Assembly (NCBI GenBank): GCA_015064635.1
Contig: SVRV01000007.1
Location: 20,602 to 84,601, forward strand
Source of the DNA: Oscillospiraceae bacterium
Lineage (GTDB): Bacteria > Bacillota > Clostridia > Oscillospirales > SIG627
Reading direction: 5' to 3'
DNA length: 64,000 nt
Position numbers and translations under genes: made by a program. Shown here piece by piece: positions 9,087-53,421 of the stretch (position 1 is its first letter; each line of letters begins with the position of its first letter). Below the pieces are notes generated by a model. The model did not search any database. It saw only the letters and a program-made list of their open reading frames with translations, and was not told the origin of the DNA.

Positions 9087-9272
9087 TGTATATCTCCTTT
9101 AAGTTATTATAACAGGGCTTTGCCCTGTACCCACTTAAAACCTTTTTATAAAAAGGTTTTAAGAATTCCAAAAATTTTAATGATGTTTATTCTTTAGCTT
9201 TGTTACCTTATTCTATGGAAGAAAACCGAAGGTTTTCAACCACAATTATTCATTATTCATTATTCATTATTC
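9087..9272. repeat. Intergenic mosaic hairpin element, locus A (argD/argF spacer)
   Basis: Hairpins at 9113..9127 (CAGGGCtttGCCCTG), 9135..9162 (28-nt palindrome) and 9221..9237 (GAAAACCgaaGGTTTTC), plus (ATTATTC)x4 at 9245..9272. The units recur at loci B, C, D and E. Confidence 0.85.
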
Positions 9273-10426
9273 ATTGCTTCAAGCAATACCTCTACCGCAG
9301 CCTTCAGCTCGTCCCATGTGATATTGAGGGGAGGAAGAAGTCTTACCTTATTTTTAGCCTTTATTGCAATAACGCCCTTTTCACGGCAAGCGGAAAGTAC
9401 CTCGGCAACGTCCTTTTCGCACTCGATGCCTATCATAAGACCCGCACCGCTGACACTCTTGACACCGTCGGCTCCGTTGAAGGAATCGAAGATGTATTTG
9501 CTCTTTTCTCTGACCTCGGCAAGAAGTGTGTCGTCAATTCTCGAAACAATGGAAAGTGCGCCTGCACAAGCCACGGGATTACCTCCGAAGGTTGAACCGT
9601 GGTCCCCGGGCTTCAGTGTATCCTTCACCTTTTCGCCAAGCATTGCAAGTCCAAGGGGAAGTCCTCCGCCAATGCCCTTTGCGGTGGTAACAATATCGGG
9701 TGTAATTCCGTAATTCATATAGTTATAAAGCGCTCCGCAACGTCCGTTACCCGTCTGCACCTCGTCAACAATAAGAAGGATATCTTCCTTTTTGCCTATC
9801 TCTGCAATGGCTTCAACAAAATCCTTTTCAAGAGGAAGAACTCCGCCCTCACCTTGGACGGTTTCAAACATAATAGCGGCAACCTTATTTTCCGAAACAA
9901 GACGCTTTACGTCATCAATATTATTCGCCTCGGCATAAACAAAGCCTTCTGTCAAGGGGAGGAAATCCTTATGGAAGGTATCCTGACCCGTTGCGGCAAG
10001 CATTGAAATGGTTCTGCCGTGGAAGCTGTTTTTGAGTGTTATTACCGTATTGTATTCCGCACCTTTTTTTTCTGCGGCATACTTTCTTGCCACCTTTACG
10101 GCGGTCTCGTTTGCCTCGGCACCCGAATTGGAGAAGAACACCTTCTTCATGCCCGTTCTCTTACAAAGTGTCTCCGCAAGCTTTGCGCAAGGCTCTGAAT
10201 AGAAGAGATTGGAGGTATGATGAATCTTACCGAGCTGTTCTGTTACAGCCTTTATCCACTCGTCATCGGCAACTCCGAAAACATTAACTGCAATACCTGT
10301 GCCAAGGTCTGTATATTCTTTTCCGTTTTCGTCAACTACCTTTGCGCCCTTTCCCGAAACAAGTGTTACGGGGAATCGTCCGTAGGTATTTGCGACATAT
10401 TCTTTATCAAGCTCTTGTATACTCAT
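9260..10426 (-). CDS. argD: Acetylornithine aminotransferase
   Basis: 388 aa class-III aminotransferase (DIVTTAKGIGGGLP lysine context). ATGA overlap with the argB stop. Confidence 0.9.
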   Translation of the reverse strand: MSIQELDKEYVANTYGRFPVTLVSGKGAKVVDENGKEYTDLGTGIAVNVFGVADDEWIKAVTEQLGKIHHTSNLFYSEPCAKLAETLCKRTGMKKVFFSNSGAEANETAVKVARKYAAEKKGAEYNTVITLKNSFHGRTISMLAATGQDTFHKDFLPLTEGFVYAEANNIDDVKRLVSENKVAAIMFETVQGEGGVLPLEKDFVEAIAEIGKKEDILLIVDEVQTGNGRCGALYNYMNYGITPDIVTTAKGIGGGLPLGLAMLGEKVKDTLKPGDHGSTFGGNPVACAGALSIVSRIDDTLLAEVREKSKYIFDSFNGADGVKSVSGAGLMIGIECEKDVAEVLSACREKGVIAIKAKNKVRLLPPLNITWDELKAAVEVLLEAMNNE

Positions 10427-11298: not shown

Positions 11299-11516
11299 AA
11301 ATTCTCCTTTTAACCGGGGGGGCTTTGCCCTTGAACCCACTAAGAAACTATTTAATGTGTTTTTTATTATAATTCTTTGCTACCCTATCCTACGGAAGAT
11401 TTGCTGAAAGCAAATCAACCATAACGTTTGCGAAGCAAACATTTCACGTGACTTCAGTCACATTTCACCCATCCGAAGGATGGATTTCACTGACATAATG
11501 GCTCCGCCATTATGTC
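11299..11516. repeat. Intergenic mosaic hairpin element, locus B (argJ/argB spacer), including a hairpin/ATTTCAC array
   Basis: Hairpins at 11398..11416, 11426..11440, 11448..11461, 11469..11483 and 11492..11516. ATTTCAC linkers (GTGAAAT in gene sense) sit at 11441, 11462 and 11484. The last hairpin overlaps the argJ stop codon. Confidence 0.9.
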
Positions 11517-12727: not shown

Positions 12728-12916
12728 ATATATCTCCTTAAAGTTTAGTTATCTTACGGTGTTATTTTTGGGTGAAAACCGAAACAATGCACAGTGCTCA
12801 GTGCACAATGCACAATTAAGGAAGATTTTGCGAAAGCAAAATCAGCCAAAATTATTCGTGATTCATTATTCATTATTCACTATTCATTATTCATTGCATA
12901 ACGCACAGCGTTATGC
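12728..12916. repeat. Intergenic mosaic hairpin element, locus C (argC/argJ spacer)
   Basis: A 5' UTR cassette at 12728..12783 is shared with the GH43 gene. Hairpin at 12824..12843. (ATTATTC)-type heptamers x6 at 12851..12892. Hairpin GCATAACGCacaGCGTTATGC at 12896..12916 abuts the argC stop. Confidence 0.9.
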
Positions 12917-18047: not shown

Positions 18048-18126
18048 AATTTTAAAGTTTTTGGAATTCTTAAACCTTTTTTCAAAAAGGTTTAAGCGGT
18101 TCCAAGGCAGAGCCTTGGCAGGGGTT
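18048..18126. repeat. Intergenic mosaic hairpin element, locus D
   Basis: About 75 nt align to the reverse complement of locus A (9111..9180), with compensatory changes in both hairpins. Confidence 0.8.
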
Positions 18127-46579: not shown

Positions 46580-47656
46580 ATGAGACAAATAAAGAGAAAA
46601 ATAGTTGCAGGACCCGTGGAAATAGGCGGAAATTCCCCCATTTCCGTACAGTCAATGATAACCGCCGACCCTCACGACAGAGAGGCGTGTGTCGGACAGA
46701 TAATGAGACTTGCCGAGGCAGGCTGTGATATCGTGCGCTTTACGCTGCCCGACCTTGAGTCGGCAGAGCATATCCCATATTACAAAGCATCTCTTAAAAA
46801 CAAAAAGACGGCTCTTGTAGCAGATATACATTTTGACTACCGCATAGCACTTTGTGCGGCAGAAAAAGGAATTGACAAAATACGCATCAACCCCGGAAAC
46901 ATCGGAGACGAAGAAAAGGTTGCCGCAGTTGTAAATGCCTGCAAAGAAAGACGTATTCCCATAAGAATAGGCGTAAACAGCGGCTCACTTGAAAAGGGGC
47001 TTCTGGAAAAATACGGTGCTCCCACCGCAGACGCTTTGGTTGAATCGGCTTTGAAGGAGATTGAAGTTTTTGAAAGACTTGACTTCCGAGATTTTGCAAT
47101 ATCCGTAAAATCCTCCGACGTTGCCACTATGATTGATGCTTACAGAAAGCTTTCGGAGAAGACAGAGTGCCCCCTGCACCTTGGTGTAACCGAGGCTGGA
47201 ACGCTCAAAAAGAGCCTTATAAAATCATCGGTTGGAATAGGAACACTTCTTTCCGAGGGAATAGGCGATACGATACGTGTGTCAATTACCGACGATGTAC
47301 TGGAAGAAGTTATAGCAGGACGTGAAATTTTATCATCTCTCGGACTTTGGGAGCGAGGCTCATTTGACCTTACCTCCTGTCCCACCTGCGGAAGAACGAA
47401 AATTAATCTTGTGGAAATCGCCAAAAAGGTGGAAGCCGCACTTGAAAAGATACCTCCCATAGAAAACCGTAAGATACGAGTTGCGGTTATGGGTTGCGTT
47501 GTAAACGGGCCCGGTGAGGCAAGAGAAGCGGACATCGGCATTGCAGGCGGTATCGGTGAAGCCTTACTCTTTAAAAAGGGCGAGCCGATTTGTAAGCTTC
47601 CCGAGGACAAAATTGTTGAAGTATTGATTGAAGAAATAGAAAAAATGAGGAATTGA
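46580..47656 (+). CDS. ispG: 4-hydroxy-3-methylbut-2-en-1-yl diphosphate synthase
   Basis: 358 aa GcpE family with the C-terminal Cys cluster CPTCGR. Confidence 0.92.
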   Translation: MRQIKRKIVAGPVEIGGNSPISVQSMITADPHDREACVGQIMRLAEAGCDIVRFTLPDLESAEHIPYYKASLKNKKTALVADIHFDYRIALCAAEKGIDKIRINPGNIGDEEKVAAVVNACKERRIPIRIGVNSGSLEKGLLEKYGAPTADALVESALKEIEVFERLDFRDFAISVKSSDVATMIDAYRKLSEKTECPLHLGVTEAGTLKKSLIKSSVGIGTLLSEGIGDTIRVSITDDVLEEVIAGREILSSLGLWERGSFDLTSCPTCGRTKINLVEIAKKVEAALEKIPPIENRKIRVAVMGCVVNGPGEAREADIGIAGGIGEALLFKKGEPICKLPEDKIVEVLIEEIEKMRN

Positions 47657-50600
47657 AATTGGAAATAGAAAAAAACAGTATATCCCTTGCCGAAAAGCTT
47701 TCCAAATATCAACCCGAGGGAATAAAAAAAGCCCTTCTTGAGGGAATATATTCCTATAAATGCGGTGTAAACAAGGAAAAGAGGACTATCGTAATACATA
47801 TTTCCTCGGACAAGCTTTTTCAAAAAAGCCTTCTCTATGAAATAGAAAACGAAATCAAGGCGGCGTATGATCTGACCGCCTGCTTTCTGTTGCCCCATTA
47901 CGAGAGTAAGCTTTTTTCGGAAGGATATTACTCCGAGCTCATCACCGAGCTGAAGCGAAATACCGCCTTTGCCAACGGCTTTTTTGACGGAGGCAAGATG
48001 GTGCTTGAGGGAAACACTCTCACCTTTATGCTTGACGGAGGGCTTGGAAAGTTACCCCAGGATGCGGAATGTGCGAGAATTATCTCGGACATTATCAAAA
48101 GTGAATTTGACCTTGCTCTGGATGTGTCGATAAATGATGCATCTCCTTTCGACATGGATGCATATATTGCCCAGTCCCAGCGTTCAATGCCCATGCCCAC
48201 TGCTCCCGAAAAGAAGGAGGAGGTAACACGTGAGGCTGTCTATTCACTCATGGAGGCATCCCCTGTGGAGGAATCCGAGGAGTCGGAGGAAAAATCGGAA
48301 GGCGGAGTCCAAAGCTTCCGCTCAGGCTTCATGGAGTTCGACCTCACCGAAAAAAGCGTTATCTATGGTAAGGACAGGAAGAAGGAAACTCCTCTTTGCG
48401 CAATAAAGAATGTATTCGGCGCAGAGCAAAAAAAGCTCATTGCCGTTTGCGGAAAGGTATTCTTTGCCGACAGCAGGGAAACACGCTCGGGAGATAAAAC
48501 TATTGCCACTGTACAGATAACCGACGAGGAATCATCGGTATCCATAAAATTCTTTTGCTCCACCGAGGCTTGGTCCGAGGCAAAAGGCTCTCTCAAGCCG
48601 GGAAATGTTTTGCAGGTAATCGGTCAGGCAGACTTTGATAAATTTGATAACGAAATAGTTTTAAAGCCTGTAACCGTCTATAAAATCTCAAGTAAAAAGA
48701 GAAAAGACGATGCACCCGAAAAGAGAGTTGAGCTTCACATTCACTCACAGCTTTCGGCAATGGATGCGGTAATCGCACCTGCTGATATTGTAAGCACCGC
48801 CCACGCCTGGGGACACCGTGCCGTAGCAATCACAGACCACGGAAACGTACAAGGCTTCCCCGATGCAATGCTTGCGGCGGAAAAGCTTGGTATGAAGGTC
48901 ATCTACGGACTTGAAGCGTATTTCGTTGACGATACCGCCCGTGCAGTATACGGCGAATCAAACGCAAGCTTCGAAAAAGATACGTTCATTATATTTGATA
49001 TAGAAACCACAGGTCTTTCGGCACTCACCTGCGGTATTACCGAAATTGGTGCCGTAAAATATCAAAGCGGAAAAATACTTGACCGCTTCAACACCTTTGT
49101 AAACCCCGATATGCCCATTCCTCAGAATATAGTTGAACTCACCGGCATAACCGACGATATGGTAAAGGATGCCCCCGACACCGAAACGGCAGTCAAGAGC
49201 TTCCTTGATTTCTGTGAGGGCAATATTCTGGTAGCACACAATGCAAACTTTGATATGAGCTTTATCAAGAAGGCTTCCGAGGATTATTCCCTTGATTGCC
49301 AAAATCCTTACCTTGATACTCTTGCTCTCTCTCGTCACATCAACACAGACCTGAAAAAGCACAAGCTTGATACCCTTCAGGAATACTACGGTCTTGAATC
49401 CTTCAATCATCACAGAGCATGTGACGATGCGGAAATGCTGGCAAAAATATTTGAGTGCATGTGTCAAAAGCTCAAAAAAGAGGGTATTGCAAACATTTCG
49501 GATATGATACTGTCAATGTCCGAAAAGACCGACCCCAAAAAGCTACGTCCCTATCATATGATAATACTCGTAAAGAATCAGATGGGTATGATGAATCTTT
49601 ACCGTCTTGTTTCCGAGTCTTATCTCACATATTTCAACCGTTTGCCCCGAATTCCCAAAACACTCCTCGAGCGCTTCCGTGACGGACTTATAATAGGCTC
49701 GGCGTGTGAGGCGGGTGAGCTTTATCAGGCAGTGCTTGCAGGTAAGGGAATGGGCGATTTGCTGAAGATTGCATCCTTCTACGATTACCTTGAAATTCAA
49801 CCTCTTTGCAACAATGCTTTCATGATTGAGAACGGGACAGTTCCCGACGAGAATAAGCTCATTGAAATAAACAAATCCATAATTGAGCTTGGCAAAAAGG
49901 CGAAAAAGCCAGTTGTTGCCACCTGTGATGCTCATTTCCTCAATAAGCAGGACGAAATCTTCCGCCGAATACTTGTATCGGCAAAGTTCTCGGATGCAGA
50001 CCGCCCCAATCCTCTTTATTTCAGAAACACAGAGGAAATGCTTGCCGAATTTTCCTATCTTGACGAAAAGACGGCGCATGAAGTTGTTATCACTAACACA
50101 AATCTCATCGCCGATATGGTGGATGACGAAATACGCCCAATTCCCAAGGGCACCTTTACACCCAATCTTGAAGGCGCTGAAGAAGACCTTCAAAATATGT
50201 GCTGGACAAAGGCAAAGAGCATCTACGGAGACCCTCTTCCCGACATAGTTTACAAGCGTCTTGACAAGGAGCTGACCTCCATTATCAAGAACGGCTACGC
50301 CGTGCTTTACATCATTGCTCAAAAGCTTGTTAATTACAGTGAAAGCCAGGGTTATCTTGTAGGCTCACGTGGCTCGGTTGGCTCATCCTTCGTTGCTTCA
50401 ATGGCGAGTATATCCGAGGTTAACCCTCTGCCTCCCCACTACTACTGTCCCGAATGTAAATACAGCGAATTCATAACCGACGGCTCGGTTGGCTCGGGCT
50501 TTGACCTTCCCGACAAGACCTGTCCAAAGTGCGGTGCTGCTCTCAAGGGTGACGGACACGACATCCCCTTTGAAACCTTCCTCGGCTTCTACGGAGATAA

Positions 50601-52029
50601 ATCCCCCGATATTGACCTTAACTTCTCGGGTGAGGTTCAAGGCAAGGTACATAAATACACAGAAGAGCTCTTCGGAAGTGAAAACGTATTCCGTGCGGGA
50701 ACCCTTGGCACACTTGCCGAGAAAACCGCATACGGATTTGTTTTAAAATATCTTGAGGGCAAGAATATTTCCATGCCAAAGGCGGAAATGAATCGCCTTG
50801 CCAACGGTTGCGTTGGTGTAAAGCGTACCACAGGACAGCATCCCGGCGGTATCATAGTTGTACCACGTGAAAACAGTGTATACGAATTCACTCCCGTACA
50901 GCATCCCGCCGATGACCCGAATTCCAGCACTATCACAACGCACTTTGCTTTCTCCTATCTTCACGATACAATTCTTAAGCTTGATGAGCTCGGACACGAT
51001 ATTCCAACCAAATACAAAATGATTGAAAAGTACTCGAACACCAACATTATGGAGGTCCCCATGAACGACCCCAAGGTTTACGAGCTTTTCAGATCAACCG
51101 AGCCCCTCGGAGTCACTCCGGAAGACATCGGCTGTCCCCTTGGAACGCTGGGACTTCCCGAGCTTTCCACAGACTTTGTTCAGCAGGTTCTTGTCGAAGC
51201 CAAGCCCAAAAACTTTGCAGACCTTTTGCAGGTTTCGGGACTCACCCACGGTACAGACGTGTGGCTGGGTAATGCGCAAGACCTTATCAACGAGGGAATA
51301 TGCGACATTTCAAAGGTTATCGGAACCCGTGACGGTATCATGCTTGACCTTATAAACTACGGACTTGAAAACAAGCTTTCCTTTGACATAATGGAAAAGG
51401 TTCGTAAGGGTAAGGGACTTACTCCCGAGCACGAGGCGGCAATGAGGGAAAAGAACGTACCCGACTGGTACATTGCATCCTGTAAGAAGATAAAATACAT
51501 GTTCCCGAAAGCTCACGCTGCCGCTTACGTAATGAGTGCCATTCGTATCGGCTGGTATAAGATTTATATGCCCGTATCCTTCTATGCAGGCTTCTTTACA
51601 GCGGCACCCGGCGGATTTGATGCGGGAATTGTCCTTGGAGGACGTGCAAATGTTGTGCGTTTCATTGCCGATGTAAAGGCGAATAAGCACGAGGCAAGCC
51701 AAAAGGACCTCTCGCTCATTCCAACTCTTCAGCTTGCAAACGAATGTATGTGCAGAGGTATACCCTTCCTGCCCATTGACCTTAAAAAATCCCATTCACA
51801 TCACTTCATACCCGAAGGAAACGCAATACGCCTTCCCTTCTCAACACTTGGCGGTGTGGGTGATGCCGCAGCCGACAGTATATACGAAGCAATGAACACC
51901 GGTGAACCGATTCTCTCCGTTGAGGACCTGCGCACACGCTCGGGAATATCCAAGGCGGTAATTGATACACTGCGTGAATTCGGTGTACTTGGAGACCTGC
52001 CCGAGACAAATCAGATAACAATGTTTTAG
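47653..52029 (+). CDS. polC: DNA polymerase III PolC-type
   Basis: 1458 aa with an exonuclease domain (FIIFDIETTGL) and PHP/polymerase domains. TTG start; TTG at 47659 is an alternative with better RBS spacing. Confidence 0.92.
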   Translation: MKLEIEKNSISLAEKLSKYQPEGIKKALLEGIYSYKCGVNKEKRTIVIHISSDKLFQKSLLYEIENEIKAAYDLTACFLLPHYESKLFSEGYYSELITELKRNTAFANGFFDGGKMVLEGNTLTFMLDGGLGKLPQDAECARIISDIIKSEFDLALDVSINDASPFDMDAYIAQSQRSMPMPTAPEKKEEVTREAVYSLMEASPVEESEESEEKSEGGVQSFRSGFMEFDLTEKSVIYGKDRKKETPLCAIKNVFGAEQKKLIAVCGKVFFADSRETRSGDKTIATVQITDEESSVSIKFFCSTEAWSEAKGSLKPGNVLQVIGQADFDKFDNEIVLKPVTVYKISSKKRKDDAPEKRVELHIHSQLSAMDAVIAPADIVSTAHAWGHRAVAITDHGNVQGFPDAMLAAEKLGMKVIYGLEAYFVDDTARAVYGESNASFEKDTFIIFDIETTGLSALTCGITEIGAVKYQSGKILDRFNTFVNPDMPIPQNIVELTGITDDMVKDAPDTETAVKSFLDFCEGNILVAHNANFDMSFIKKASEDYSLDCQNPYLDTLALSRHINTDLKKHKLDTLQEYYGLESFNHHRACDDAEMLAKIFECMCQKLKKEGIANISDMILSMSEKTDPKKLRPYHMIILVKNQMGMMNLYRLVSESYLTYFNRLPRIPKTLLERFRDGLIIGSACEAGELYQAVLAGKGMGDLLKIASFYDYLEIQPLCNNAFMIENGTVPDENKLIEINKSIIELGKKAKKPVVATCDAHFLNKQDEIFRRILVSAKFSDADRPNPLYFRNTEEMLAEFSYLDEKTAHEVVITNTNLIADMVDDEIRPIPKGTFTPNLEGAEEDLQNMCWTKAKSIYGDPLPDIVYKRLDKELTSIIKNGYAVLYIIAQKLVNYSESQGYLVGSRGSVGSSFVASMASISEVNPLPPHYYCPECKYSEFITDGSVGSGFDLPDKTCPKCGAALKGDGHDIPFETFLGFYGDKSPDIDLNFSGEVQGKVHKYTEELFGSENVFRAGTLGTLAEKTAYGFVLKYLEGKNISMPKAEMNRLANGCVGVKRTTGQHPGGIIVVPRENSVYEFTPVQHPADDPNSSTITTHFAFSYLHDTILKLDELGHDIPTKYKMIEKYSNTNIMEVPMNDPKVYELFRSTEPLGVTPEDIGCPLGTLGLPELSTDFVQQVLVEAKPKNFADLLQVSGLTHGTDVWLGNAQDLINEGICDISKVIGTRDGIMLDLINYGLENKLSFDIMEKVRKGKGLTPEHEAAMREKNVPDWYIASCKKIKYMFPKAHAAAYVMSAIRIGWYKIYMPVSFYAGFFTAAPGGFDAGIVLGGRANVVRFIADVKANKHEASQKDLSLIPTLQLANECMCRGIPFLPIDLKKSHSHHFIPEGNAIRLPFSTLGGVGDAAADSIYEAMNTGEPILSVEDLRTRSGISKAVIDTLREFGVLGDLPETNQITMF

Positions 52030-52563
52030 CATAACGCTGTGCGTTATGCAGTGAAATGTTTTGACGTTGTCAAAACGTGAAATTCACCTTCGGTGAGTGA
52101 AATGTGACTGAAGTCACATGAAATGTTTGCTTCGCAAACGTTAAGGTTGATTTTCTTCGAAAATCTTCGATTGATTATAGCGGACCGTCGAGGACGCCGG
52201 TCCCTACAAATGTATTTGTTGCAAAAGTGGGTAAAGAGACGAAAGTGAGTCGAGCAGAAAGCAAAGTATTGCGAAAAAAGACGAAAAAATTTCAAAAGGT
52301 GGGAGTTTTGGAGGGAAAATCGCGGAGTGCGAAGGCGTCGGCGTACTTATGTACGCCAGTCCGAGCAACACGCGAAGAAAATGAAATTTTCACTGATGGA
52401 GAAAACCTTTGGTTTTCAACAAAAGAAGAAATGCTTTGGGGAGCGATTTGTTCGCACTACAAAAGCGTGGGAGTGAACACAGCCGAAAATAAACAACTAT
52501 TTCATTTTCGGTTTTCACCCAAAAATCATCACCGTACGATAACTAAACTTAAAGGAGACATAC
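52029..52563. repeat. Intergenic mosaic hairpin element, locus E (largest; polC/GH43 spacer)
   Basis: A hairpin/GTGAAAT array at 52029..52165 starts on the last base of the polC stop codon. Further hairpins at 52183..52204 and 52348..52365 and around 52399..52421 and 52482..52511. The terminal 5' UTR/RBS cassette (52507..52563) is ~90% identical to the one in front of argJ. Confidence 0.9.
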
Positions 52564-53421
52564 ATGGAAATATTGCAGGGCGCTGACCCTTTCATCCTTC
52601 TTCATGACGGAAAATACTACTGTTACCCCACATCCGACTCACATAACGGATACATCGTTTACGAATCCGACGACCTGATAAACTGGACAGACCGAGGATA
52701 CTGTCTCGTAAAGGATGATGTTATGGGTAATGACAACTTTTGGGCGCCGGAGGTAACCTATTATAACGGAAGGTTCTATATGGTATATACCGCCAATCTT
52801 CACCTTGGGATAGCGGTCGCCGACAGTCCTTTAGGTCCCTTCAAGCAGACAGAGAAAAAATGGTTGAGTGAGGACAGAGCTATTGACGGAAGCTTTTTCA
52901 TCGACGATGACGGAAGCGTCTACCTTTACTATGTGGGATATAACAATCCGGGCGGTCCCATATGTGTAAACCGCCTGTCAAAGGATCTGCTTTCCTTTGA
53001 CAGTGAGCAAAAGGTGCTCATCCGTCCCACTCAAGAATGGGAGCTTGTGACCGCCTACGAATATGAGGGTCAAACCCTTTGCGTAACCGAAGGACCTTTT
53101 ATGCTGAAGCACAAAGGGAAGTATTATCTCTCCTACTCCGCAAATGACTATCAGAGTCCGTCCTATGCCATAGGATACGCTGTTTCCGACTCTCCCATGG
53201 GTGATTTTATGAAGTATGAAAATAATCCGATTCTTATAGGAAGCGGTGAGATTCAAGGCACAGGTCACCATTCCTTTACTACAACAAAGGATAAAAAAGA
53301 GCTGATATGTGTTTTTCATGCACATAACAGCAAAACCGAAATTCATCCGAGAATGACACACATCCTACCCGCAAGGTTTGTAACCGAAAACGGCGAGGAT
53401 GTGCTGAAGATATCAAATTAA
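52564..53421 (+). CDS. GH43 family glycoside hydrolase
   Basis: 285 aa with ADPFILLHDGKYY, FWAPEVTYYNGRFYMVY and EGPFMLKHKGKYYLSYS. Confidence 0.85.
   Translation: MEILQGADPFILLHDGKYYCYPTSDSHNGYIVYESDDLINWTDRGYCLVKDDVMGNDNFWAPEVTYYNGRFYMVYTANLHLGIAVADSPLGPFKQTEKKWLSEDRAIDGSFFIDDDGSVYLYYVGYNNPGGPICVNRLSKDLLSFDSEQKVLIRPTQEWELVTAYEYEGQTLCVTEGPFMLKHKGKYYLSYSANDYQSPSYAIGYAVSDSPMGDFMKYENNPILIGSGEIQGTGHHSFTTTKDKKELICVFHAHNSKTEIHPRMTHILPARFVTENGEDVLKISN

Follow-up and report, generated by a model that had tools for sequence, protein, structure and literature searches.

Introduction

The row of short hairpins considered here starts on the stop codon of polC in a 64,000-nt stretch of DNA from an Oscillospiraceae bacterium (GenBank assembly GCA_015064635.1, contig SVRV01000007.1, positions 20,602 to 84,601 of the forward strand; hereafter the window, that is, the whole stretch analysed) and is a "solo" copy of Gut-1 (Rfam RF01706), a hairpin-array repeat. 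Other systems to which it is close are the repetitive extragenic palindromic (REP) elements, the BOX repeats and the attC sites. REP elements are multicopy intergenic palindromes, located mostly 3' of genes and co-transcribed, which form mosaics in both orientations and can protect the upstream mRNA; they are built on one conserved imperfect palindrome with a GTAG tag that is recognised by the RAYT transposase. The BOX elements of Streptococcus pneumoniae have the composition boxA-boxB(n)-boxC, with sequence-conserved modules of 45-59 nt, and fold as RNA. In attC sites the structure is kept while the sequence varies; they lie directly after the upstream stop codon or overlap it, and the folded strand is antisense to the gene. 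Each attC is a single imperfect hairpin of 55-140 nt with RYYYAAC and GTTRRRY core sites, within an integrase-linked cassette array.

Gut-1 was described from 43 sequences by Weinberg et al. (2010, Genome Biol 11:R31; PMC2864571) as occurring in the "human gut only" and as a likely noncoding RNA not affiliated with mRNAs, its function and gene context not being stated. Literature searches on Gut-1 found nothing beyond the 2010 paper, and the family has been in Rfam since that year without function, gene context or cultivated host, under the type label "Gene; sRNA".

The Hairpin Array Downstream of polC

The gene preceding the array is an open reading frame (ORF) listed at 47653-52029 (+), with a TAG stop at 52027-52029; a contig of the same strain encodes the PHP, RNase_T, DNA_pol3_alpha, finger and HHH_6 domains of a PolC-type protein and, being identical to the window, is uninformative for comparison. 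As an earlier note on this DNA had reported, the first base of the array is the last base of the polC stop, whose G opens the head hairpin, and the letters of six consecutive perfect hairpins at 52029-52165 read exactly as given there. On the plus strand, the head hairpin GCATAACGC-tgt-GCGTTATGC (52029-52049), recovered by both the perfect-hairpin scan and the fold, is followed by a single a, a GTGAAAT linker (52051-52057) and the hairpin GTTTTGAC-gtt-GTCAAAAC (52058-52076), then by a second GTGAAAT (52077-52083) with TCACC-ttc-GGTGA (52084-52096), a third GTGAAAT (52097-52103) with GTGAC-tgaa-GTCAC (52104-52117), an ATGAAAT linker (52118-52124) with GTTTGC-ttc-GCAAAC (52125-52139), and finally the degenerate linker GTTAAGG-tt (52140-52148) and the tail hairpin GATTTTC-ttc-GAAAATC (52149-52165). 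Two points of the earlier description are to be amended: stem and loop of the last hairpin measure 7 bp and 3 nt, and the linker, which had been called invariant, is conserved and not constant (GTGAAAT exact three times, ATGAAAT once, degenerate GTTAAGG once). The core, overlapped by the Gut-1 match at 52049-52129, comprises four linker-plus-hairpin units (52051-52139, +), and the tail (52140-52169, +), composed of GTTAAGG, tt, the hairpin and TTCG, is common to all four copies in the window.

The array is real, highly non-random and not due to chance. The scan for perfect hairpins (stem of at least 5 bp, loop of 3-5 nt; block shuffles as control) finds one cluster of six in the window, at polC, and one of five (11398-11516), and shuffled windows contain on average 0.15 clusters of three or more. 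The plus-strand RNA folds with -52.1 kcal/mol (z = -5.1), a value reached by none of 200 shuffles, and all six hairpins are present in both the minimum-energy and the centroid structures; the minus-strand RNA folds with -43.3 kcal/mol (z = -6.3). GTGAAAT itself occurs 21 times in the window versus 12.6 expected, an excess due to two triplets at 52051-52103 (+) and 11441-11490 (-). Tetraloops of the cUUCGg type were considered and rejected, since the palindromes, being perfect, leave only 3-nt loops with a C:G closing pair and the register does not fit.

The earlier note held that a combination of this kind matches no known element class; in fact, the covariance model of Gut-1 (gathering threshold of 50 bits) recognises it at 52049-52129 (+), with 66.5 bits in a local search and 59.6 bits in a whole-window search, and gives a second match of 52.2 bits at 11416-11492 (-). 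The model alignment and the sequence both contain three consecutive hairpins spaced by GUGAAAU; the stems are kept while their sequence varies, as is seen in paired changes of the tail and in 256 distinct linker-to-linker spacers, which fold with at least five Watson-Crick pairs and at most one mismatch; and the hosts are gut-associated uncultivated bacteria, in a range wider than that of the original description. Moreover, 16 of 18 sampled related loci score above the Gut-1 threshold. A CRISPR array was also considered and rejected, the repeat being of 7 nt, the spacers palindromic and the best CRISPR-repeat model scoring 21 bits versus a threshold of 37.

Copies in the Window

Gut-1 is modular and lies dispersed in the intergenic regions of gut Clostridia, a full copy being made of a head, units, a tail and sometimes a distal module. 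The head is a hairpin rich in stop codons, the units are a variable number of RTGAAAT heptamers each with a short GC-cored hairpin, the tail is GTKAWGG plus a hairpin, and the optional distal module carries the Shine-Dalgarno sequence of the next gene. Besides the full copy on the 3' side of polC (52029-52169, +), the window contains three others, within an argCJBD operon whose argC, argJ, argB and argD identities are confirmed by Pfam; all four are in sense orientation and start at, or just inside, a stop codon.

The second full copy, between argJ and argB (11394-11516, -), gives the Gut-1 match of 52.2 bits and consists of five perfect hairpins, namely head, three linker-hairpin units and tail. 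The 5' arm of its head includes argJ's own ACATAA, so that the TAA stop of argJ lies inside the arm, and two of its hairpins are identical to hairpins of the polC copy. The third copy, between argC and argJ (12820-12916, -), has a head hairpin (12916-12896, -) identical to that of polC and directly after the argC TAG, followed by a tandem run of 5-6 heptamers (ATGAATA or GTGAATA) uninterrupted by hairpins, a tail hairpin and TTCC; a second heptamer run (ATTGTGC or ACTGTGC) is seen after its tail. The fourth, at the 3' end of argD (9217-9274, -), is without head and hairpin units, and its (ATGAATA)x4, which runs over the final codons of argD and its stop, is followed by the tail hairpin GAAAACC-ttc-GGTTTTC and TTCC. 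The tail stem differs among the four copies by paired changes that preserve it: GATTTTC/GAAAATC at polC is GATTTGC/GCAAATC at argJ-argB, and GATTTTGC/GCAAAATC and GAAAACC/GGTTTTC are the other forms. Homology between the copies stops after AAATCTTC(C/G).

Sharing resumes at the far end of the spacers. A Shine-Dalgarno module, TTTCGGTTTTCACCCAAAAAT..GATAACTAAACTTAAAGGAGA, located just before the GH43 start codon (52505-52563, +), is about 90% identical to the last ~60 nt before argJ (12785-12728, -), and the repeat family thus seems to bring ribosome-binding sites along; since the modules before the GH43 and argJ starts are shared as well, whole intergenic regions appear as mosaics of repeat modules.

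Other elements of these spacers were recorded on their own account. A GTAG-tagged REP-like hairpin, GTAGGGACCGGCGTCCTCGACGGTCCGC, lies at 52180-52207 (-), about 10 nt past the tail TTCG, and occurs once in the window; similar hairpins of the GTAGGGG.. type adjoin arrays in two other loci (L009 and L022). Between the array and GH43, a purine-rich stretch of about 300 nt (52210-52500, +), absent from the close relative L373, has no Rfam or Pfam match, and the 119-residue ORF at 52227-52586 belongs to no Pfam family. A repeated hairpin pair is found at 9112-9163 and 18069-18118 (CTTAAAACCTTTTTATAAAAAGGTTTTAAG plus ACAGGGCTTTGCCCTGT; CTTAAACCTTTTTTCAAAAAGGTTTAAG plus CCAAGGCAGAGCCTTGG), and an AGTGGGT..GGGCAAAGCCC motif is common to the spacers before argB and after argD.

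Insertion and Turnover Between Relatives

Four relatives whose ArgJ is 78-87% identical to that of the window were used as the comparison set. Their argC-argJ junction measures from -1 to 19 nt versus 189 nt in the window, the argJ-argB junction from 10 to 43 nt versus 212 nt, and the junction between argD and the next gene from 3 to 10 nt versus 173 nt. The C-terminus of ArgJ (YVKINGDYRT*) is unchanged, its native ACATAA forming part of the 5' arm of the head hairpin, while that of ArgD ends in ..AMNNE* in the window versus ..AMKI* or ..VMKG* in the relatives, so that the heptamers have replaced the last codons and supplied the stop. In the locus L373 (960-1176), in which the PolC C-terminus is 95% identical, the polC-GH43 spacer of 217 nt carries a tail hairpin with a T.G pair and a run of (AATTCTC)n heptamers, without head and without hairpin array.

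Since arrays are missing from the same junctions in close relatives, these comparisons show the copies to be recent, lineage-specific insertions of a dispersed repeat into spacers, at the stop codon or a few codons inside it, and the L373 comparison indicates a turnover of arrays among closely related strains. Between copies, units have been acquired, lost and exchanged, and the hairpins stay near-perfect palindromes though their sequences differ. The terminal sequences, (G)CATAACGC on the 5' side and ..AAATCTTCC on the 3' side, do not form an inverted repeat, and no target-site duplication is present at the three filled junctions when these are set against the empty junctions of the relatives, only microhomology (CATAA or ATGAA) at two of them. 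A simple miniature inverted-repeat transposable element (MITE), which the earlier note had named as the outcome adverse to an RNA function, is therefore rejected from the comparison of filled and empty sites, there being neither inverted ends nor target duplication, and the conditions under which that note would have abandoned an RNA function do not apply.

Distribution in Gut Genomes

A scan with the linker pattern, one genome per species, returned at least 120 loci, and 67 of those listed are true hairpin arrays. Among the matches listed, the true arrays belong almost all to Clostridia, Eubacteriales, Oscillospiraceae, Ruminococcaceae, Acutalibacteraceae and Christensenellaceae, in metagenome assemblies from ruminant, horse, chicken and human gut, with a few in Akkermansia and Bacteroidaceae. 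A tail-specific pattern applied to mixed metagenomes gave 11 true arrays among the 120 matches listed; viral contigs gave 4 among 120, and since these are so few and all beside tRNA genes, no phage link is drawn. Near-identical arrays follow three different genes in the loci L085, L086 and L100, and many copies are located at contig ends, which together point to a multicopy and recently active repeat.

The sense orientation noticed at polC is non-random across genomes: for single arrays, the upstream gene is on the same strand in 26 cases versus 8 and, where it ends within 120 nt, in 18 versus 2. The first linker follows the stop codon at 17-67 nt, and the stop codon is usually located within an AT-rich head hairpin or immediately before it. 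Where genes converge, a tail-to-tail pair of arrays is found, one attached to each gene. In addition, a mirrored form exists, in which a GTGAAAT array is followed by an ATTTCAC array just past the terminators of many different tRNA genes; the fold of this form is a single long, imperfect stem. Linkers of other kinds (ATGATG, GTGATAT/ATATCAC) were observed in arrays beside GTGAAAT arrays in the locus L014 (3500-3850) and in the 2010 alignment of Weinberg and colleagues, and the most constant part of the linker is TGA.

Probable Transcription Through the Arrays

The account that we hold, with somewhat better than even confidence, to be right is that the array is a modular, proliferating intergenic repeat that is transcribed through and forms REP/BOX-like RNA hairpins, and that it is not a device specific to polC. 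The sense orientation supplies stop codons in all three frames, which close after 0, 7 and 16 codons, as compared with 9, 32 and 41 for the antisense frames. Scans of the polC copy and of the argJ-argB spacer, the one arg spacer scanned, found no promoter-like site and no convincing U-tract terminator, the argJ-argB spacer having no promoter-like or terminator-like sites at all. Since the arg copies lie inside an operon with no such signals in the spacer scanned and the downstream genes must be expressed, sense transcription through the arrays is very likely.

RNA polymerase would then read through the array as the 3' region of polC, and the other copies would be part of the arg operon mRNA. 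In the RNA a row of independent stem-loops would be formed, each extended by one A-U and one U.G pair, which the linker ends add to every stem of the GTGAAAT strand; due to these linker-end pairs, the GTGAAAT strand is calculated to be the more stable one in 85 of 86 arrays, the mean difference being 4.9 kcal/mol. The persistence of the arrays would mainly be that of a tolerated self-propagating repeat, the sense orientation surviving because the upstream frame is closed quickly and transcription is not terminated, and any benefit may be generic and of the REP/BOX kind, such as a barrier to 3'-to-5' exonucleases or a spacer between cistrons. Read-through, RNA stability and turnover between relatives, taken together, fit a tolerated proliferating repeat. 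The RNA-level function in the sense of the upstream gene that the earlier note proposed is thus retained in part: the structure is real and sense-oriented and read-through is very likely, while a locus-specific function is doubtful because close relatives lack arrays at these junctions.

Several observations weigh against this account, most of them concerning the strand. The loops of the GTGAAAT strand are mostly TTC, TGC, TTGC, TTAC and TAC, with C:G as the closing pair in 199 of 221, and the same loops on the other strand are GNA and GNNA closed by C:G, which are classic extra-stable loops, especially in DNA. Under the strict linker-to-linker count, internal stem mismatches on the GTGAAAT strand are A.C in 16 cases and G.T in 4, so that the wobble pairs lie on the ATTTCAC strand; with 20 events the one-sided binomial p is ~0.006 (a first set gave 14 versus 3), and a looser hairpin caller, by which the asymmetry is blurred (18 versus 15), was not used. 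The usual mutation biases would predict the opposite asymmetry. In one conserved hairpin, moreover, a tandem G.A mismatch is formed only on the ATTTCAC strand. Loops, mismatches and tandem G.A suggest that it is the opposite strand whose ability to fold is maintained, contrary to the sense strand that the earlier note took as the functional fold. A replication-strand explanation was set aside: GC and AT skew in the window track only the gene strand and give no replication signal. A further difficulty is the mode of spread, which leaves no terminal inverted repeats, no target-site duplications and nothing but the microhomology at two junctions.

The PF05635 Gene as a Possible Partner

The ORFs of 80 array-bearing loci were clustered by family. 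The most recurrent family near arrays, of ~116-120 residues, corresponds to PF05635 (23S rRNA intervening-sequence protein) and TIGR02436 (four helix bundle protein). It resembles Avd, the accessory protein of diversity-generating retroelements (PMC10053308), and literature on PF05635 function yielded nothing beyond this likeness. Thirteen loci fetched by the linker pattern alone contain the gene; in 7 linker-fetched loci its start codon is 15-59 nt past the last ATTTCAC of a mirrored array, and in 4 loci it is flanked instead by hairpin-less tandem heptamers or by arrays with other linkers. The loci with the gene after a mirrored array are L015, L034, L049, L060, L064, L066, L078, L158 and L376-L392, and the tRNA neighbours of such arrays differ (Arg-CCG, Gly-GCC, Gln-CTG, Leu-TAA, Arg-ACG). 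Heptamers of other kinds were noted beside the gene at L029, L090, L117, L118 and L012 (KAGAAAT, GTGAAGA, ATTTCAC alternating with ATTGCTC or ATCTCAC), and in Akkermansia it has flanking hairpin arrays with the linkers GGTGATATC and GGTTATATC. Considering these varied heptamer runs, the link of PF05635 is to heptamer arrays in general.

Proteins 87-98% identical to a family member number in the thousands, mostly on contigs shorter than 2 kb. When two PF05635 proteins were looked up, all 17 of the loci with at least 260 nt upstream showed three GTGAAAT and four ATTTCAC, the ATG following the last ATTTCAC at a distance of 54-56 nt. For one of the two proteins, the gene contexts number at least four, and near-identical terminator hairpins delimit the unit of mirrored array and PF05635 gene. 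The 64-kb window contains no PF05635 or Avd-like gene, no reverse transcriptase family recurred among the ORFs near arrays, and no template/variable repeat pair was seen, no search having been aimed at them.

On these grounds it is conceivable, if rather unlikely, that there is an undescribed family of selfish elements, with PF05635 in its complete copies, to which the Gut-1 arrays belong as gene-less partners. A complete copy, located beside tRNA genes, would consist, in this order, of a terminator, a mirrored GTGAAAT/ATTTCAC array, a promoter and the Avd-like gene. The putative target of the PF05635 protein would be heptamer-plus-hairpin units, recognised as folded single-stranded DNA or RNA of the ATTTCAC strand with loops of the cGNAg type, and the protein might help to copy such units to stop codons and terminators, with neither inverted ends nor duplicated targets. 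If this were true, the polC array would be the footprint of a new mobilisation mechanism; and a causal PF05635 link would explain a very abundant repeat of gut Clostridia, the large family of "four helix bundle proteins" and the breaks of gut metagenome assemblies at these sites.

Alternative Readings

An adaptive cis-acting RNA device, in which the hairpins guard the upstream cistron from 3' exonucleases or mark a site of RNA processing, is a possibility to which we give little credence. It would account for the sense orientation (18 versus 2), the anchoring at stop codons and the operon-internal position without terminator, and it agrees with the very stable fold, with stems kept by paired changes and with the analogy to the REP elements of E. 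coli; however, relatives whose proteins are 78-95% identical lack the arrays at the corresponding junctions, hairpin-less copies occupy equivalent positions, and the wobble and loop asymmetry favours the other strand.

The loop and mismatch asymmetries keep alive a different reading, likewise improbable, in which the ATTTCAC strand is the one that matters, either as single-stranded DNA hairpins in copying or moving, possibly with PF05635, or as antisense RNA that blocks back-running transcription. In addition to the G-N-A or G-N-N-A loops with C:G closure, the 16 versus 4 wobble pairs and the tandem G.A mismatch, this strand has an AUUUCAC after each hairpin, one such site being called terminator-like by the scan; the mirrored arrays and the tail-to-tail pairs put this orientation in the path of incoming transcripts, and in all 17 loci with sufficient upstream sequence a PF05635 gene is found downstream of an ATTTCAC array, at 54-56 nt, besides the 13 linker-fetched loci. 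On the other hand, the U.G pair of the linker is formed only on the GTGAAAT strand, which RNA energies favour in 85 of 86 arrays, the variant linkers GTGATAT, ATGATG and ATGAATA lose the U-run, the PF05635 gene is absent from the window, and the mismatch sample is small (n = 20). The two full copies in the window also face opposite ways within 40 kb, each behind its gene, an arrangement that fits transcription better than replication direction, the GC skew of the window being uninformative.

That Gut-1 is a free-standing small RNA gene, according to its type label in Rfam and to its listing among noncoding RNAs in the 2010 paper, is very improbable, because the polC copy and the argJ-argB spacer have no promoter-like site on either strand and no terminator, the arrays start at stop codons with three copies in the interior of the argCJBD operon, unit number varies and some copies are without hairpins; the loci do not have the character of an independent small RNA gene. 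Least credible of all is an intrinsic terminator array or a polC attenuator: GC-cored hairpins do lie directly after the gene, with two weak terminator-like matches at polC versus 1.2 expected, but in the sense direction they are followed by GUGAAAU and not by a U-tract, there are 0 sites at argJ-argB, and termination by the same element between argC, argJ and argB would cut off essential downstream genes.

Comparison with Known Systems

The tolerated, transcribed-through repeat that we favour can be placed beside several described elements. With the 23S rRNA intervening sequences and Avd it shares the PF05635/TIGR02436 gene, located beside the mirrored arrays, whose long imperfect stem is like the stems flanking the intervening sequences; in contrast to these, the elements described here are not inside rRNA. 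With attC sites it has in common the position at the stop codon and the conservation of structure over sequence, and the antisense fold of attC parallels the strand puzzle found here; unlike attC, it consists of many small perfect hairpins, its GTTAAGG/GTTATGG misfits GTTRRRY, it belongs to no integrase-linked cassette array and its flanks are housekeeping genes.

The likeness to BOX is in the modular intergenic organisation, in which the end modules are fixed and the internal units vary in number, whereas BOX elements are without a heptamer linker and are not anchored at stop codons. Like REP elements and bacterial interspersed mosaic elements (BIMEs), the array is multicopy, palindromic, intergenic and 3' of genes; in this case, however, it is the hairpin sequences that vary and the 7-nt linker that is constant, and the array hairpins are without GTAG. 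No RAYT (Y1 transposase) family recurred among the ORFs near arrays. If the arrays were only tolerated filler, they would still be useful as strain-level markers of turnover and would be a caution against typing every covarying hairpin motif as a small RNA.

The closest comparison is that with Gut-1 as published, which is likewise made of adjacent short hairpins joined by GUGAAAU in bacteria of gut metagenomes. The published motif has three hairpins, while the arrays described here have 5-6, with a head and a tail, start on the stop codon and also exist in a hairpin-less and in a mirrored form. The window and its relatives add that they are recent insertions docking on stop codons within operons, even in a compact arginine operon, that they occur with or without hairpins and mirrored next to tRNA genes, and that in their fullest form they are physically linked with an Avd-like gene present in many copies; they are found in ruminant, horse and chicken as well as human gut, including some Akkermansia and Bacteroidaceae.

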